Source: a virus
Taxonomy: Duplodnaviria > Heunggongvirae > Uroviricota > Caudoviricetes
Reading direction: 5' to 3' (one strand)
IMG/VR virus record: IMGVR_UViG_2778261350_000011
Location: 1-2,789 of that record
DNA length: 2,789 nt
In this document: piece by piece, positions 1-2,789 of the stretch
How positions within the stretch are numbered: position 1 is the stretch's first letter
Layout of the letters: each line of letters starts with the position of its first letter
Made by a program: the position numbers and the translations under genes
Notes under the pieces: generated by a model
What the model was told of the DNA's origin: nothing
Database searches by the model: none
Seen by the model: only the letters and a program-made list of their open reading frames with translations

Positions 1-201
1 TTACCCATTGGCGCGGCTTAAGAGCTTATTTTTGAATTCACAATGGTCACGATATAACCATCTTGCTCGCCCGTGGATAACTTTGGCTTTTGGCAGGTCG
101 CCGGACTTAATCCGGTCATAGATGAAGGTTTTACCAAAGCCAGTATCAGCCATGATGAATTTCAAATCAACCAGTGAATCAGGCTGTAGTTCGTGTTGCA
201 T
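1..201 (-). CDS. xis: Excisionase-like small DNA-binding protein (AlpA/Xis family, winged-helix type), 66 aa
   Basis: Complete ORF on minus strand: ATG at 199-201, TAA at 1-3. AGGAG at 211-215 (minus) lies 9 nt upstream of the ATG. The segment TFIYDRIKSGDLPKAKVIHGRARWLYRDHCEF fits the AlpA/Xis pattern (T-IY-W-like helix, then G-FP-P-K-G, then R-W). It is the last gene of the leftward array, where lambda-type prophages place xis ahead of int. Family call is from memory and position only. Confidence 0.6.
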   Translation of the reverse strand: MQHELQPDSLVDLKFIMADTGFGKTFIYDRIKSGDLPKAKVIHGRARWLYRDHCEFKNKLLSRANG

Positions 202-243
202 GAGTGCTATCTCCTAATAGGGAATCGAACCTGCAAATCAGGC

Positions 244-270
244 AATAAAAAACCGCCATCAGGCGGCTTG
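244..270 (-). terminator. Rho-independent terminator on minus strand
   Basis: Minus-strand transcript reads aaGCCGCC-tgat-GGCGGtt followed by UUUUUUAUU. The GC stem is 253-257 paired with 262-266, extendable by G.U and A.U pairs; the U-tract is 246-252. The hairpin overlaps the TGA stop (259-261) of the upstream small ORF and sits just upstream of the xis-like gene. Confidence 0.55.
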
Positions 271-426
271 GTGTTCTTTCAGTTCTTCAATTCGAATATT
301 GGTTACGTCTGCATGTGCTATCTGTGCCCATAGCATCCAGTGGTCATAGCAGTCGTTGATGTTCTCTGTTTCGATAACTCTGTTGAATGGCTCTCCATTC
401 CATTCTCCTATAACTCGGAAGTGCAT
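259..426 (-). CDS. Hypothetical small acidic protein (55 aa from ATG at 424-426; 60 aa if the TTG at 439-441 in the ORF track is used)
   Basis: Minus-strand ORF ending TGA at 259-261. The ORF track start at 441 is TTG with no upstream SD. The in-frame ATG at 424-426 has GGAGA (435-439, minus) 8 nt upstream, so the ATG start is preferred. No recognisable domain (MHFRVIGEWNGEPFNRVIETENINDCYDHW...). Confidence 0.5.
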   Translation of the reverse strand: MHFRVIGEWNGEPFNRVIETENINDCYDHWMLWAQIAHADVTNIRIEELKEHQAA

Positions 427-461
427 TCGTGATTTCTCCAAAAGATGCTTGAGTGCGCTTC

Positions 462-773
462 TTATTCGATTCGCACACCTGGTATTTCGCCTTTTGAAAT
501 GGCTAAGTCATAAATTTGCGCAGCACTATACCCATCTCGCATCCATGAATCTAAGGCGCGAACAGCCTCGCTACGCTTTTTATCTTCTCTCTCATTTTTG
601 ATATCAACGAGGACATCAACGCAATTAAGGCATATGTGGATTTTGTCCTTACATTCGATCATGGCGGCTTTACCATGATTTCCGCCACACAGTGAGCATA
701 AATCTTCAGGGTCTGGCTGGTATTTCTGTAACGTTAGAGGGTTGAATGTTGAACAGGCCATAATCATCTCCAT
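462..773 (-). CDS. Hypothetical protein with C4 zinc-ribbon (C-x2-C-x18-C-x2-C), 103 aa (99 aa if started at ATG 759-761)
   Basis: Minus-strand ORF with TAA at 462-464. Three in-frame ATGs at 771-773, 765-767 and 759-761; only the third has well-spaced SD (GGAG then 6 nt). Cys26/Cys29 and Cys48/Cys51 (nt about 621-698) form a classic four-Cys zinc-ribbon spacing, followed by a charged helical-looking C-terminus. Function unknown. Confidence 0.65.
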   Translation of the reverse strand: MEMIMACSTFNPLTLQKYQPDPEDLCSLCGGNHGKAAMIECKDKIHICLNCVDVLVDIKNEREDKKRSEAVRALDSWMRDGYSAAQIYDLAISKGEIPGVRIE

Positions 774-800
774 AAAACAAAACCCGCCGTAGCGAGTTCA

Positions 801-828
801 GATAAAAGAAATCCCCGCGAATGCGAGG
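801..828 (-). terminator. Putative intrinsic terminator on minus strand (tL-like) between the ASCH gene and the zinc-ribbon gene
   Basis: Minus-strand RNA reads CCUCGC-auuc-GCGGGG (813-828), a 6-bp stem with one G.U pair, followed by AUUUCUUUUAUC (801-812). On the plus strand the same stem has a C-A mismatch, so the structure favours the minus-strand transcript. It begins 4 nt after the TAA (833-835) of the upstream gene. Confidence 0.5.
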
Positions 829-832
829 ATTG

Positions 833-1117
833 TTATTCATTGCTGATATTCACCTTTATCGCGTATACCTTTACCGGTTTATCGCCGAAGTGGGGATGTG
901 TGATTGTCTTGATTTCATATCCGTCATACGGGACATCAATTCTGCGACTGAAGTCGTCGCGCTTCGGATATCCCTTTGTGATAATCAGGCGGTCATACTT
1001 ACGGTTAACGAGGCGCTTTTTCCAGTAGTCATTACACAGGCGATACTCTTCCGTTTTCTCTCCGCGAATCATGGCATCGAAGTATTCACCTTTAACGGCA
1101 AGTTGCAGGTTAGCCAC
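833..1117 (-). CDS. ASCH/PUA-like domain protein, 94 aa
   Basis: Minus-strand ORF with GTG start at 1115-1117 preceded by a perfect AGGAGG (1124-1129, minus) and 6-nt spacer; TAA at 833-835. The start overlaps the upstream gene's stop by 8 nt (GTGGCTAA). LAVKGEYFDAMIRGEKTEEYR ... YDRLIITKGY ... GYEIK ... VKVYAIKV matches the ASCH (PUA-like beta-barrel) pattern as I recall it; not verified by search. Confidence 0.7.
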   Translation of the reverse strand: MANLQLAVKGEYFDAMIRGEKTEEYRLCNDYWKKRLVNRKYDRLIITKGYPKRDDFSRRIDVPYDGYEIKTITHPHFGDKPVKVYAIKVNISNE

Positions 1118-1508
1118 GGTTAACCTCCTGCCTCGGTTCTACTGCAAAATACGCAATACCTTTATCCCAGATGGATTTTATGGTCGTCCACGTGACTGGT
1201 ACTTTAATTTCAATCCGCCCGCTACCGTCACAGGTATCGCAATCATCATCGCCAAAACATTCCGGGCAGCTTATAAACGTCGTTTCTGAAAATTCACCGG
1301 ATAGCACACCCTTAGCGCCGTTCTCAGCGGTTAGTTTCTTCGGCACTATAACCCAACCATCCGGAATTACCGGAGAGTTGCCAGCATTGCGCATGGCAAT
1401 CTCCACGATTTCAACCATATCTCCTGGCGGAATTTTGCAATGCTGACCAAAGCGCCTCTGCTGCCTGGCATACTCGAGGATGTGCTCCAGCTTGGTACTA
1501 TTAATCAT
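1110..1508 (-). CDS. Hypothetical protein with DnaJ-type cysteine-rich zinc-finger motif (CxxCxGxx-x-CxxCxGxG), 132 aa
   Basis: Minus-strand ORF: ATG at 1506-1508, TAA at 1110-1112. GGGAGA sits 6 nt upstream of the ATG. The ATG overlaps the TGA of the upstream gene (ATGA, 1505-1508). Residues 81-97, CPECFGDDDCDTCDGSG (nt 1218-1268), form a tandem CxxCxG zinc knuckle like the DnaJ cysteine-rich repeat. The N-terminal half has PDGWVIVPKK, which resembles motifs common in enterobacterial prophage proteins. Confidence 0.7.
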   Translation of the reverse strand: MINSTKLEHILEYARQQRRFGQHCKIPPGDMVEIVEIAMRNAGNSPVIPDGWVIVPKKLTAENGAKGVLSGEFSETTFISCPECFGDDDCDTCDGSGRIEIKVPVTWTTIKSIWDKGIAYFAVEPRQEVNRG

Positions 1509-1858
1509 GATTTATCTCCCTTAAGCATTGCGGCGCGGCAGGCGTTCCAGCCTTCATCAAAGCCGACTATGCCATTATTTAAAGACGGACGAGCATCTGG
1601 CACCACCGGCACTGGCTTGGCTATGTATAGCGGCTGAACATACCAGCCCTTTGATAACCAACTGTCAGCAATGTTTTTACTCCTCGTTATTGCCGGAATA
1701 CCCAAGCCATTGTCTGAATGCAGCCATGCCATCGGTTCTGCTTCCAGCGAGGCTAACGCTATTTCATAAGCCCGGCGCTCAATATTGTCTCGGACGTCCA
1801 GGCTGCCTATACGCTCTTTGATTTCTTTAATCAGTTCTTTGTCGGTGAACGTTGTCAT
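1505..1858 (-). CDS. Hypothetical phage protein, 117 aa
   Basis: Minus-strand ORF: ATG at 1856-1858 with GAGGA 7 nt upstream; TGA at 1505-1507 overlapping the next gene's ATG. Only 3 nt separate it from the stop of the upstream gene (1862). The C-terminal EGWNACRAAML-type motif recalls prophage proteins of unknown function; no confident domain call. Confidence 0.7.
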   Translation of the reverse strand: MTTFTDKELIKEIKERIGSLDVRDNIERRAYEIALASLEAEPMAWLHSDNGLGIPAITRSKNIADSWLSKGWYVQPLYIAKPVPVVPDARPSLNNGIVGFDEGWNACRAAMLKGDKS

Positions 1859-1861
1859 GTG

Positions 1862-2149
1862 TTAGTCCTCATCCACTTCAACCCCATCTTTCAGCGTGAT
1901 GCCGTGCCAATCATCAGCCCAACTGGTTAGCCCTGGCGCATCAATGCTAGGCATATAGACGCTTGCAGTGTGGTAGCCCTTATCGTTATCAATGCTGGCA
2001 ACGTGCTCGCCGTTGTATGCGCTCAGCGTGTCCAGGACGCTATAAAACTTTCCTCCGGCTGCCCTGAAATCCTTTACAGCCTTCACAAGGCGATTCCACG
2101 CTTTTTCCTGTTCTGGCGTCAGGTCGATTAATTCCTGCAAAGTTGCCAC
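1862..2149 (-). CDS. Hypothetical small acidic protein, 95 aa
   Basis: Minus-strand ORF with GTG start at 2147-2149 preceded by AAGGAGAG (about 5-6 nt spacer) lying in the last codons of the upstream gene; TAA at 1862-1864. One nucleotide separates the upstream TGA (2151-2153) from this GTG. Direct count gives 17 Asp/Glu against 8 Lys/Arg, with a DGVEVDED tail. Confidence 0.65.
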   Translation of the reverse strand: MATLQELIDLTPEQEKAWNRLVKAVKDFRAAGGKFYSVLDTLSAYNGEHVASIDNDKGYHTASVYMPSIDAPGLTSWADDWHGITLKDGVEVDED

Positions 2150-2150
2150 A

Positions 2151-2789
2151 TCACTCTCCTTTCCCCTGAAGCATGGCGTTGCTCCGCTCTATACCATCCA
2201 GCGCGATTCGCAGTGCCTGAATTGTGGTAATGCTATCGTTTGGGGCTATTCCATATCGCTCGAATACAGCGATATGACCGCGCATAATCTCAGGCGTAAG
2301 CTCTTTGTAAGCATAAGCAAGCGACCCTGATGCATTATCCGGCACTACTGGCGATGGCTGTTTAGCTTCTAAATCAGCAATTCTGTCAACCACGGCATCG
2401 ACGGCATCTGAAAAACTGAAACAGTTACTCCACTCCGGCCTATCCCCGGTTGCTGCAAAATACATATCAGATAAAGCAGACTCAGCATTGTCACGCTCAT
2501 TGATGAGTTGCTCTTCGCTTTCCTCCAGCTCTGCAATGCGTTTGCTTTGGGCTTCTCGTTCATCCAACAGCGCCTGCGCTACTTCAGGGTTGAAAGCTGC
2601 GATATAACGAGCGTTGTTCTCTGCGTTTTTCTGTCCATCAAAGCCGGTCCATTTGATGACGTCTTCACATCGTTCATCACCGGGCGTGTGCACCGCATAA
2701 GTACCAGTATCCGTCGAAATAAATGCGACCCATTCGCCTGGTGTTGCCTTTTCTGCCGCCTCACGCAGTACCTGATAGTCAATTGTCAT
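2151..2789 (-). CDS. Ead/Ea22-like family protein (conserved N-terminal domain, central coiled-coil, variable C-terminal domain), 212 aa
   Basis: Minus-strand ORF: ATG exactly at the window edge (2787-2789), TGA at 2151-2153. The N-terminus (LREAAEKATPGEW ... NARYIAAFNPEVAQALLDE) followed by a Glu/Leu-rich heptad-like stretch (RIAELEESEEQLINERD) matches my recollection of the Ead/Ea22-like family of lambdoid early-left genes. The upstream region is outside the window, so the true start and promoter cannot be judged. Confidence 0.72.
   Translation of the reverse strand: MTIDYQVLREAAEKATPGEWVAFISTDTGTYAVHTPGDERCEDVIKWTGFDGQKNAENNARYIAAFNPEVAQALLDEREAQSKRIAELEESEEQLINERDNAESALSDMYFAATGDRPEWSNCFSFSDAVDAVVDRIADLEAKQPSPVVPDNASGSLAYAYKELTPEIMRGHIAVFERYGIAPNDSITTIQALRIALDGIERSNAMLQGKGE

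Follow-up and report, generated by a model that had tools for sequence, protein, structure and literature searches.

Prophages with the KplE1/HK620/Sf6-type recombination module combine a 16-nt att core with an uncoupled organization of the genes for the integrase and the recombination directionality factor (RDF), such that the integrase is located at the opposite end of the prophage beside argW (PMC2951348). HK620, Sf6, and CUS-3 are grouped with this module by description (PMC2951348). The window (the whole 2,789-nucleotide stretch of DNA analysed here) very probably is the 2.8-kb promoter-distal part of the leftward early (pL) operon in a lambdoid Escherichia coli prophage that is integrated at argW, terminates in torI, and encodes IntS at a non-adjacent position. 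The window is a mosaic of already catalogued parts whose combination is itself new, and the only fresh lead that it provides is the likeness of one small protein, O3, to the zinc finger of ClpX.

Gene content of the window

The minus strand holds eight tightly packed ORFs (O1–O8; Table 1) that make up 2622 of the 2789 nt (94%). A GGAG-type Shine-Dalgarno sequence lies 5' of each preferred start that has upstream sequence within the window; O8 starts at the window edge, and this observation therefore covers the other seven ORFs. Of the PHROG and Pfam searches that the first-pass annotation had proposed for each protein, those against PHROG placed all eight in phage families (E-values of 2.7e-08 to 2.1e-69), and its claim of eight minus-strand genes is upheld by the ORF positions, Shine-Dalgarno sequences, and PHROG matches. 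GC skew was negative over most of the window and weakly positive only at ~700-1000 and 1-200, consistent with coding on the minus strand. From O8 through O4, each stop codon either overlaps the next start or is separated from it by 1-3 nt. The start of O2 was taken as the ATG at 426, a mechanically called TTG start at 441 being unlikely, and that of O3 as the ATG (M5) at 761, the longest form beginning at 773. A promoter scan of the window yielded nothing convincing (one site versus 3.9 expected), a result that speaks neither for nor against a separate promoter for torI.

Table 1. Positions and assignments of ORFs and terminator-like hairpins in the window.
Feature	Position	Strand	Description	Basis or match
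O1 (torI, by sequence)	1..201	-	66 aa; recombination directionality factor (excisionase) of the KplE1/HK620-type module; TorR inhibitor	
Intrinsic-terminator-like hairpin	250..269	-	Between O2 and torI	GCCGCC-TGAT-GGCGG then T6
O2	259..426	-	Homolog of lambda/434 ORF55 (lambdap35)	phrog_676, tblastn
O3	462..761	-	ClpX-type C4 zinc finger and helical tail	933W L0063
Two tandem terminator-like hairpins	780..831	-	Between O4 and O3	831-810 and 799-780
O4	833..1117	-	ASCH (PUA-like) domain protein, 94 aa	phrog_625, octapeptide, Foldseek
O5	1110..1508	-	Chimeric 132-aa protein of two modules	phrog_24004, phrog_924, phrog_60
O6	1505..1858	-	EaA/YfdT-like, 117 aa	phrog_5117
O7	1862..2149	-	Acidic 95-aa protein, pI 4.5	phrog_2821
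O8	2151..2789	-	Ead/Ea22-like, 212 aa	Pfam Ead_Ea22, phrog_6847

The accessory genes

The Ea22-like gene recognized in the first-pass annotation is O8, of which residues 2-104 match Pfam Ead_Ea22 (7.6e-24) and residues 136-211 match phrog_6847. Its Ea22 domain at the N-terminus is followed by a coiled-coil-like middle and then by a C-terminal module that is unrelated; the BLASTP alignment with lambda Ea22 is limited to ~18 N-terminal residues, and no PDB sequence was matched at E ≤ 1. Residues 1-56 of O5 match phrog_24004 and phrog_924, a module common to genes of HK022 and VT1-Sakai, and residues 40-131 match phrog_60, a module with a small zinc motif (CxxC...CxxCxGxG) common to the C-termini of ‘Ea22’/‘EaA’ proteins. 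O5 matched the DnaJ Cys-rich domain only weakly (E 0.32). No phage record covers ≥80% of O5, the halves of which match different phages, and none covers ≥80% of O8. O5 and O8 are module chimeras.

Among the remaining genes of this block, O6 matches phrog_5117 (8.8e-37) and shares 56% identity at its N-terminus with 933W L0065 (‘similar to EaA of P22’), and the DNA at 1730-1858 is 81.5% identical to the start of K-12 yfdT. O7 (phrog_2821, 6.9e-66; 98% identical to 933W L0066) was identified in 104 phage records, nearly all of Stx phages and always annotated as hypothetical; it is confined to the Enterobacteriaceae and matched nothing in the PDB, including in a profile search. O4 is a genuine ASCH domain protein, in agreement with the ASCH/PUA-like fold previously suspected for one inner ORF. 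It matches phrog_625 (8.9e-50) and contains the octapeptide G19-E-K21-T-E-E24-Y-R26, in which G19, K21, E24, and R26 are invariant in 31 homologs and which corresponds to the G-X-K-X-X-E-X-R motif as defined in PMC9599836. The best 13 Foldseek PDB matches of its AF2 model (pLDDT 82) are all ASCH (probability 0.84-0.99); its Pfam ASCH score is 14.6 bits, below the cut-off of 21.2. Comparison of O4 with two homologous loci placed 15 of 23 and 12 of 21 substitutions at third codon positions.

Five of the six inner ORFs had been considered to be of unknown function, which is overstated for two of them. O2, read from its ATG, matches phrog_676 (1.5e-37) and is 94.5% identical (tblastn) to lambda 29121-29285 and to ‘ORF55’ of phage 434; the lambda gene likewise lies directly upstream of xis. 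The other is O3, which matches phrog_3680 (E 2.1e-69), is identical in amino acid sequence (100%) to 933W L0063, and carries a ClpX-type zinc finger at residues ~21-58 with four cysteines that are invariant across its family. Searched alone against the PDB, O3 gave six weak matches, the top three of which were ClpX zinc-binding domains, and these domains were the sole PDB matches of the O3 family profile. O3 itself scores 15.7 bits on Pfam zf-C4_ClpX, under the gathering threshold of 27, and its relatives of the same size and architecture score 28-43 bits; of 25 aligned sequences (O3 and 24 relatives from the family profile), 20 match zf-C4_ClpX. In the alignment with the N-terminal domain of ClpX (PDB 1OVX, 2DS5-8), ClpX residues 14-51 correspond to the O3 finger, sharing the four zinc-ligand cysteines (CxxC-18-CxxC) and the helix that follows (CVDL...I..E), with an hhalign probability of 97.2% against E. 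coli ClpX residues. Unlike ClpX, O3 is a stand-alone protein of 99 aa without an AAA+ module, and it has a conserved C-terminal tail of its own (...IYDAIxxGKIPxIRI-D/E).

This likeness raises the idea that some of the small genes encode host-takeover or counter-defence factors and, specifically, that O3 is a decoy of the ClpX zinc-binding domain that would either titrate adaptors or substrates of ClpX or associate with its N-domain. Were this so, a phage protein would be stabilized during the lysis-lysogeny or excision decision. Along with the ClpX matches, the idea draws on the presence of an RDF gene ≤1.4 kb downstream of O3 in 67 of 80 O3-bearing viral contigs, involving three unrelated RDF families. 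However, these contigs are nearly all at least 95% identical, and the linkage may reflect shared ancestry and limited recombination sites instead of function. Moreover, the resemblance is one of domain only, C4 ribbons can bind partners of many kinds, the finger region is poorly modelled by AF2 (pLDDT 55-66), and a literature search found no paper on such a function. We regard the decoy as a doubtful proposal, although one that is compatible with the pL-operon assignment, to which it would add a function for one part.

Prophage setting and the torI boundary

Upstream of the window, the source contig encodes DUF2737, Gp157, RecT, CI (S24), Cro, and CII, and a protein whose start resembles that of lambda N is encoded in the same orientation (contig L002, 2307-2630). 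These genes bear out the first-pass view of a lambdoid early-left (pL-distal) accessory region, including the recombination gene (recT) sought above position 2789, and the predicted order from an Ea22-like to a xis-like gene matches lambda ea22 - ea8.5 - orf55 - xis.

The xis-like label given to O1 was also correct. O1 matches the excisionase family phrog_66 (E 2.7e-08) and, from end to end, has the same sequence (100% identity) as PDB 1Z4H (‘Tor inhibition protein’), and window positions 1-251 are 98.8% identical in DNA to K-12 torI plus its leader. Judged by its sequence, O1 is TorI, the characterized RDF of E. coli K-12 KplE1/CPS-53 with a solved structure. An att site had been anticipated below position 1, and the argW core CTGCAGGGGACACCA(T) follows the torI stop after 73 nt, at 2921 of contig L003; with this attR copy the prophage ends, 74 nt beyond window position 1. 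Past the core, both NCBI assembly contigs that contain the window at 100% identity continue into the host genes dsdC/dsdX/dsdA/emrYK/evgA, and the torI-att-dsdC stretch matches the K-12 torI-pawZ-dsdC segment at 381 of 394 positions. A related complete genome has intS and tRNA-Arg ~39 kb away, adjoining tailspike and ejection-protein genes. The more complete related elements are P22-like (Lederbergvirus; the Kapi1/HK620/Sf6/CUS-3 group), and from these relatives we infer that the prophage is probably intact and of P22-like morphotype.

The element might instead be a decayed, non-inducible remnant like K-12 CPS-53/KplE1, with the genes of the window as relics. Its integration site and TorI are identical to those of the defective KplE1, and both source contigs break within the prophage (L002 shortly after cII, and L003 at 58 nt upstream of O8). 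However, none of the eight ORFs is disrupted, and each has a Shine-Dalgarno sequence where this can be read; CI, Cro, CII, N, RecT, and Gp157, all absent from KplE1, are intact in the adjoining 7.4 kb, and the genomes that share this end are full-length P22-like (pro)phages of 39-40 kb. We consider decay unlikely.

The first-pass annotation had expected int below position 1, as in a lambda-type layout with a tyrosine integrase and attL directly past xis and both genes co-transcribed from pL. The ea22 ... orf55 - xis order is that of lambda, and int directly follows xis in O3-bearing viral contigs with lambda-type (22/24) or 933W-type (11/11) modules. Yet both contigs containing the window run from torI through 73 nt and the att core into host dsdC, with no integrase gene between torI and dsdC in either, and IntS follows TorI in only 4 of the 32 (of 80) O3-bearing viral contigs with TorI downstream, which would fit genome records that are unintegrated or permuted. 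The flanking sequence refutes such a layout at this locus, and we give it very little credence. Absence of an integrase from a flank had been named as a sign against a phage locus; formally this holds on one side, and phage origin is not thereby refuted. Membership in a MADS-type anti-phage defence system has virtually no likelihood and is excluded, given that PADLOC mad1 (mads_1) matches O1 residues 7-66 (E 7.6e-14) because of a shared small AlpA/Xis-type helix-turn-helix fold, that O1 is identical to an experimentally characterized RDF, that the neighbouring genes are phage early genes, and that no other system component occurs in the window, the one other PADLOC match being a marginal RmrT on O8 (E 0.001, 16.6 bits, with no stretch passing alone).

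A terminator scan identified seven terminator-like hairpins versus 2.6 expected from shuffles, and the path to torI crosses three of them. The hairpin at 250-269 (-13 kcal/mol, z -2.45) has the O2 stop codon in its loop and coincides with a mosaic junction: 3' of it the sequence changes with xis type, and K-12 homology stops at window position 251. Lambda and Kapi1 conserve this hairpin together with orf55, 933W conserves it next to just the 3' end of that gene, and in K-12 the corresponding hairpin matches no more than weakly. The tandem hairpins (-24.4 kcal/mol, z -4.6; 0 of 200 shuffles equally stable) are kept in 933W along with O3-O4. These hairpins may just as well act as attenuators within the operon or as RNA-stability elements, or simply mark conserved recombination junctions.

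Under the pL-operon assignment, N-modified transcription would start at pL after induction, cross the putatively translationally coupled O8-O4 block, and pass by N-dependent read-through the two tandem hairpins and then the hairpin over the orf55 stop, with TorI expressed last. TorI, with IntS and IHF, would then bend the att arms, leading to excision. In modules of this type, attP separates int from the RDF gene, so that the two lie at opposite ends of the prophage and are transcribed independently. The accessory genes probably are cassettes that are exchanged by recombination at the boundaries between modules.

Comparison with described systems

KplE1/CPS-53 of K-12 shares the TorI protein, the att core, and the dsdC host flank with this locus, and it carries intS at its other end, beside argW. 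It differs 5' of the hairpin at 250-269, where ypdJ/yfdT/yfdS... replace orf55, O3, and O4 (resemblance to yfdT being limited to the initial ~130 nt of O6), and it lacks the immunity and recombination genes that adjoin the window. Kapi1 has the same order (RecT - Gp157 - ... - Ead/Ea22-like - ... - O3 homolog - orf55 homolog - excisionase - att), with an O3 homolog of 103 aa, an orf55 homolog of 96% amino acid identity, an excisionase of 66 aa, and att at the genome end, whereas between Ea22 and O3 it has a transmembrane protein and other hypothetical proteins in place of O4-O7.

Lambda (ea22 - ea8.5 - orf55 - xis - int - attP) shares orientation, order, the orf55 terminator hairpin, an orf55 product 94.5% identical to O2, and the Ead_Ea22 N-terminal domain found in O8. 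In contrast to lambda, the window has no ea8.5 homolog, its RDF belongs to the TorI family rather than to that of lambda Xis, and int is not adjacent. In 933W, L0063-L0066, immediately upstream of xis-int, show the same order as the window, tandem hairpins included, and L0064 is ~90% identical to O4. 933W differs in having another xis/int pair, which is adjacent to att, in lacking O5 as such, and in retaining only the last ~50 nt of orf55 plus its hairpin rather than the complete gene.

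Gene content and upstream flank of the window

The eight minus-strand open reading frames (O1 to O8) cover 94% of the window as coding sequence, and a GGAG-type ribosome-binding site precedes each preferred start whose upstream sequence lies within the window, the start of O8 coinciding with the window edge. O8 through O4 are linked by gaps of 1–3 nt or by overlaps of 4 or 8 nt, PHROG matches were identified for all eight proteins (E-values of 2.7e-08 to 2.1e-69), and GC skew is negative across most of the window, being weakly positive only at 1-200 and around 700-1000. Based on the packing, the ribosome-binding sites, the PHROG matches, and the GC skew, the eight-gene minus-strand array that the first-pass annotation had read from the sequence alone is real, far beyond chance. 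The starts of O2 and O3 were set to their shorter forms by the PHROG alignments. An NCBIfam search of the eight proteins returned no match except fragments of ClpX models on O3. O6 was left uncalled by the gene caller in assembly GCA_025784455.2 (8368-8722 of its contig); the identical sequence is called in GCA_002519865.1, and its PHROG support is strong.

Coordinates and strand of genes, hairpins, and other features in the window
Feature	Positions	Strand	Description
O1 (torI)	1-201	minus	66 aa
O2 (orf55)	259-426	minus	55 aa, counted from ATG
O3 (933W L0063)	462-761	minus	99 aa, counted from third ATG
O4 (ASCH)	833-1117	minus	94 aa
O5	1110-1508	minus	132 aa
O6	1505-1858	minus	117 aa
O7	1862-2149	minus	95 aa
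O8 (Ead/Ea22-like)	2151-2789	minus	212 aa
Terminator-like hairpin	269-250	minus	O2/torI gap; fold -13 kcal/mol, z -2.45
Tandem terminator-like hairpins	831-810 and 799-780	minus	O4/O3 gap; fold -24.4 kcal/mol, z -4.6, stability equaled by 0 of 200 shuffles
Sub-threshold STnc130 match	151-278	plus	full model length
ORF antisense to O4	821-1123	plus	100 aa
Further plus-strand ORF	1071-1289	plus	

The window is 100% identical, in reverse complement, to parts of two assembly contigs (GCA_025784455.2 and GCA_002519865.1), and the exact O8 protein was found on five contigs. Upstream of O8 lie, in order, a gene for a 214-aa protein, DUF2737, two small genes, Gp157, and RecT, beyond which are several small genes and genes for an Nmad5-domain protein, a lambda-N-like protein, an S24-type CI, Cro, and CII. 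We take the protein starting MDAQTRRRERRAEKQAQWKAAN... to be lambda N; it has a counterpart in L004 with Pfam N36. This layout is that of a standard lambdoid immunity and early-left region. Thus, the phage context that the first-pass annotation had suggested looking for above position 2789 is present (RecT, Gp157, N, CI, Cro, and CII), and its recognition of a lambdoid early-left region, an ordinary and well-known kind of region, was correct. The recombination genes of the prophage are RecT and Gp157, not exo/bet. The Nmad5 protein (207 aa; GCA_025784455.2 contig 2645-3268, ~4.2 kb upstream of the window) carries a nucleotide-modification-associated Pfam domain, and its gene immediately follows the lambda-N-like gene in a shared operon.

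TorI, the attachment core, and the prophage boundary

O1 is identical at 66 of 66 residues to the ‘Tor inhibition protein’ of PDB entry 1Z4H, and is therefore the recombination directionality factor (RDF) TorI, an excisionase that is small and of the winged-helix type. Its best Pfam match was a weak one to HTH_17 (E-value of 0.0079), and no lambda-Xis-type family was detected on O1 in the Pfam search; given this and the identity with TorI, assignment to the lambda Xis family was rejected. In both source contigs an att core (CTGCAGGGGACACCAT) lies 73 nt beyond the stop codon of torI and is followed by dsdC, with only the attR copy in view. The full order after torI is 73 nt, CTGCAGGGGACACCA(T), and then dsdC, dsdX, dsdA, emrY, emrK, and evgA. 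This 15/16-mer corresponds to the argW 3' end and to the pawZ/attR core of CPS-53/KplE1, the cryptic prophage at argW in Escherichia coli K-12, for which the 16-nt argW core has been quoted (PMC2951348), and the stretch from torI to dsdC is identical to K-12 at 381 of 394 positions. Since the att core and dsdC follow torI, the right prophage boundary is 74 nt beyond position 1 of the window.

The first-pass annotation had expected int beyond position 1. That expectation failed: no integrase gene was found downstream of torI in either source contig, where the att core and host genes occur instead, and a lambda-type module, in which the integrase gene directly follows and overlaps xis and attP/attL comes next, was rejected. 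The cause of the wrong prediction is already in the literature. In the module common to KplE1, HK620, Sf6, and CUS-3, int has its own promoter, which overlaps attL, and the transcription of int and of the RDF gene is uncoupled (PMC2951348, PMC3509656). The source contigs stop inside the prophage, and the intS end was read from K-12 and from a related complete genome. In K-12, argW-intS is at one end of the element and torI-pawZ-dsdC at the other. In the related genome, intS is beside a tRNA-Arg gene, ~39 kb from torI, and the intS end carries tailspike, ejection-protein, and Arc/antirepressor genes, which identifies the element as a P22-like prophage. For argW-type prophages (KplE1/HK620/Sf6/Kapi1), the excisionase itself marks the prophage boundary, and searching for ‘xis next to int’ misplaces both the boundary and the integrase.

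The related genome of a horse-gut E. coli (NZ_CP128255.1) differs from the source contigs in its host flank (2140-7705): the torI end adjoins a csc sucrose-utilization cluster, not dsdC, and beyond the cluster come the truncated remains of dsdX and then dsdA. The att-proximal host region is therefore itself variable. In a PADLOC screen, TorI matched mad1 of the MADS system (E-value of 7.6e-14) and O8 marginally matched RmrT (E-value of 0.001). A defense-system reading was rejected because these were the only matches, the first being to an AlpA/Xis-type HTH protein; small proteins of this type can thus yield false calls of defense components.

Predicted folds of O3, O4, and the remaining accessory proteins

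O3 is 100% identical to L0063 of the Stx phage 933W. Four cysteines (C22, C25, C44, and C47; CxxC-(18)-CxxC) are invariant in both a closer (A2) and a more divergent (A7) alignment of the family. Taken alone, O3 matched Pfam zf-C4_ClpX (PF06689) below the gathering score (E-value of 0.015; 15.7 bits versus 27) and NCBIfam ClpX models over residues 23-70 only (E-values of 0.002-0.003; 17 bits versus a cut-off of about 360), and its weak matches in these two databases were to ClpX only. Among six weak matches in a PDB sequence search, the top three were ClpX zinc-binding domains, others being a RING-finger protein and a restriction endonuclease, and a profile of 20 family members matched ClpX chains only (best E-value of 0.019). 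Searching 1.84 billion representatives with a profile recovered 35 relatives. zf-C4_ClpX was detected at an E-value ≤ 0.01 in 20 of 25 aligned sequences (O3 and 24 profile-found relatives), and four relatives with the same ~100-aa architecture exceeded the gathering score of 27 (P0163, 28.4 bits; P0167, 43.3; P0168, 31.7; P0172, 29.5). Alignment of the broadened family to residues 14-51 of E. coli ClpX with hhalign gave a probability of 97.2% (E-value of 3.5e-11). Structure prediction was unhelpful for O3 because the AF2 model, for which 20 sequences were aligned, was of low quality (mean pLDDT of 68; 55-66 in the finger region) and a Foldseek search with it returned nothing (best E-value of 5.6). 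We conclude from the profile comparisons that O3 is a putative ClpX-type C4 zinc finger with a family-specific helical tail. O3 is not a ClpX itself, since the 99-aa protein has no AAA+ ATPase module after the finger.

An RDF gene is located within 1.4 kb downstream of O3 in 67 of 80 O3-encoding IMG/VR contigs, and nine more contigs end within 700 nt. Three unrelated kinds of RDF occupy this position: TorI (32 contigs), lambda Xis (24), and 933W xis (11). An int gene directly follows the RDF gene in 22 of the contigs with lambda Xis, in all 11 with 933W xis, and in four with TorI, an independent sign that module organization differs. The loci were retrieved with the closer alignment (A2) and almost all relatives returned were at least 95% identical, so the positional linkage between O3 and the RDF may be historical and not functional. 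We regard it as improbable that O3/L0063 and its ~100-aa relatives, as free-standing proteins, mimic the zinc-binding domain at the N-terminus of ClpX and interfere with N-domain-dependent recognition of substrates or adaptors by ClpXP. If this were true, lambdoid and Stx phages would express a decoy just before the excision factor, tuning the stability of a phage or host regulator at induction. The literature searched yielded no ClpX N-domain decoy encoded by a phage, and nothing relevant emerged on phage proteins with a ClpX-type zinc finger or on the present genes in an accessory-gene screen. The exo-xis region is known to affect the induction of Stx prophages. L0063, which is found in many Shiga-toxin phages, would be a ClpX-type zinc-finger protein tied by position to three unrelated excision modules, and is a testable lead for this poorly understood region.

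O4 is about 90% identical to 933W L0064, and its RefSeq homologs are labeled ‘ASCH domain-containing’. The ASCH octapeptide, G-X-K-X-X-[ETS]-X-R (PMC9599836), is represented in O4 by G19-E-K21-T-E-E24-Y-R26, of which G19, K21, E24, and R26 are invariant in 31 homologs. Pfam ASCH (PF04266) scored below its gathering threshold on O4 (14.6 versus 21.2 bits) and matched just 12 of the 31 homologs (best E-value of 0.029). The AF2 model of O4 had a pLDDT of 82, and its Foldseek neighbors in the PDB at ranks 1-13 were all ASCH proteins (3IUW, 2Z0T, 5GUS, and 1XNE; probabilities of 0.84-0.99 and TM-scores of 0.41-0.59). The octapeptide and the model thus bear out the call of an ASCH/PUA-like fold that the first-pass annotation had made for one of the six internal ORFs, and O4 is assigned to the ASCH superfamily with a predicted PUA-like beta-barrel. 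N4-acetylcytidine amidohydrolases of the YqfB type, an ASCH subgroup, use a Thr nucleophile that is part of a Thr-Lys-Glu catalytic triad within the octapeptide. Read from the sequence, the [ETS] position of O4 is occupied by Glu, with a Thr after the Lys; the E. coli YqfB structure ranked only 15th in the fold search (probability of 0.63).

When plus-strand ORFs were screened against PHROG, the sole full-length match was that of the ORF antisense to O4, to phrog_20945 (1.7e-56). Substitutions relative to two homologous loci fall mostly at third codon positions of O4, and residue changes in the O4 frame are half those in the antisense frame. On this pattern the antisense ORF was rejected as a gene and is a shadow of O4, and phrog_20945 was therefore probably built from mis-called genes. 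The further plus-strand ORF had only a 23-residue fragment match (phrog_38841).

Among the other proteins, O2 shares 94.5% amino acid identity with lambda lambdap35 and phage 434 ‘ORF55’. O5 is a chimera: residues 1-59/76 are present in HK022, VT1-Sakai, and other phages, whereas residues 42-130 form the C-terminal part of proteins that carry an Ea22 or EaA annotation. A phage record covering 80% of O5 was not found. Its C-terminal module contains CPEC...CDTCDGSG, with a weak likeness to the DnaJ CxxCxGxG finger (E-value of 0.32). The N-terminus of O6 is 56% identical to 933W L0065 (‘similar to EaA of P22’), and its DNA resembles the start of K-12 yfdT. The DUF551 label of RefSeq neighbors was rejected for O5 and O6: Pfam DUF551 matched neither at an E-value ≤ 0.1, and the label comes from a longer relative, the C-terminal part of which the window lacks. 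O7, which is acidic (pI of 4.5) and 98% identical to 933W L0066, is confined to prophages of Enterobacteriaceae and Stx phages and is annotated ‘hypothetical’ throughout; a profile search of the PDB with O7 returned nothing. O8 matched Pfam Ead_Ea22 (PF13935) over residues 2-104 (85.3 bits versus a cut-off of 27; E-value of 7.6e-24). Its C-terminal module corresponds to phrog_6847, unlike that of lambda Ea22, with which O8 has in common only the first ~18 residues (BLASTP aligns residues 3-20). The C-terminal domain of lambda Ea22 has an NMR structure (PMC10834534); a similar domain was rejected for O8, as the BLASTP alignment stops at residue 20 and the only PDB sequence match at an E-value ≤ 1 was unrelated. 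No phage record covering 80% of O8 was found, and PDB sequence searches with O2, O5, O6, O7, and O8 gave no meaningful match.

Hairpins, proposed expression order, and cassette exchange

A terminator scan identified seven sites where 2.6 were expected, the three best being on the coding (minus) strand and backed by the folding results. The tandem hairpins are kept together with both O3 and the ASCH gene in 933W. The O2 stop codon (TGA, 259-261) is in the loop of the O2/torI hairpin, and a ribosome finishing orf55 would therefore be predicted to cover its 5' arm. This arrangement suggests translation-sensitive termination at a hairpin that may also be a recombination junction. No credible promoter was found in a scan of the window, which held fewer sites than expected by chance. 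Rfam matches were sub-threshold only (STnc130, 26.8 versus 55 bits; RsmY, 18 versus 57). On the strand opposite torI, the match to the Enterobacteria sRNA STnc130 overlaps the start and leader of that gene and stops at the bidirectional hairpin; chance, driven by the terminator, may alone account for it.

The gene content, orientation, RDF identity, att core, host flank, and upstream early genes were observed directly, and established lambda biology together with the KplE1 papers would place the following steps upon them. On loss of repressor, N-modified pL transcripts would extend leftward across recT and the ‘ea’ genes, reading past first the tandem hairpins and then the orf55 hairpin, with torI the last gene to be transcribed. 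TorI, IntS, and IHF would then excise the prophage at argW, with IntS supplied from its own autoregulated attL promoter. Other exo-xis genes are reported to affect host physiology or the balance between lysis and lysogeny, and by analogy the accessory proteins encoded here probably do so. TorI is also able to bind the response regulator TorR (PMC3509656).

None of 5426 complete E. coli genomes and none of 50,697 phage records covered at least 80% of the window; pieces of it occur at 80–99% identity in 4028 E. coli genomes and 505 phage records. Homology with K-12 spans window positions 1-251 and breaks off within the O2/torI hairpin, and stretches common with 933W are 244-310, 460-1140, and 1755-2148. 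We aligned the orf55-xis junction of the window, lambda, Kapi1, 933W, and K-12. Both orf55 and the hairpin are kept in the window, lambda, and Kapi1, whereas only the orf55 3' end and the hairpin are left in 933W and only a weakly matching hairpin in K-12. The sequence just downstream of the hairpin switches with the type of excisionase. In a 257-aa database protein (P0160), an EaA/YfdT-like N-terminus continues in frame into O3 residues ~28-99, the two meeting at a short ‘AAM’ micro-homology; this fusion shows directly that modules are shuffled within coding sequences in this region. The pattern is that of cassette exchange, as is classic for lambdoid ‘ea’ regions: the ‘ea’ genes are shuffled as cassettes, and the junctions here fall at conserved hairpins and short in-frame motifs.

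This particular mosaic is new among the complete E. coli genomes and phage records searched, and all of its parts are catalogued. The new information is modest, comprising the putative zinc finger of O3/L0063, its constant place before excision modules of three kinds, and the confirmed ASCH assignment, and the main value of the window is as a correction and a catalogue entry. As in lambda, where orf55 is directly upstream of xis, O2 directly precedes torI. The order in the Lederbergvirus phage Kapi1 is likewise RecT, an Ea22-like gene, and then the O3 homolog, the orf55 homolog, the excisionase, and att at the end of the genome.
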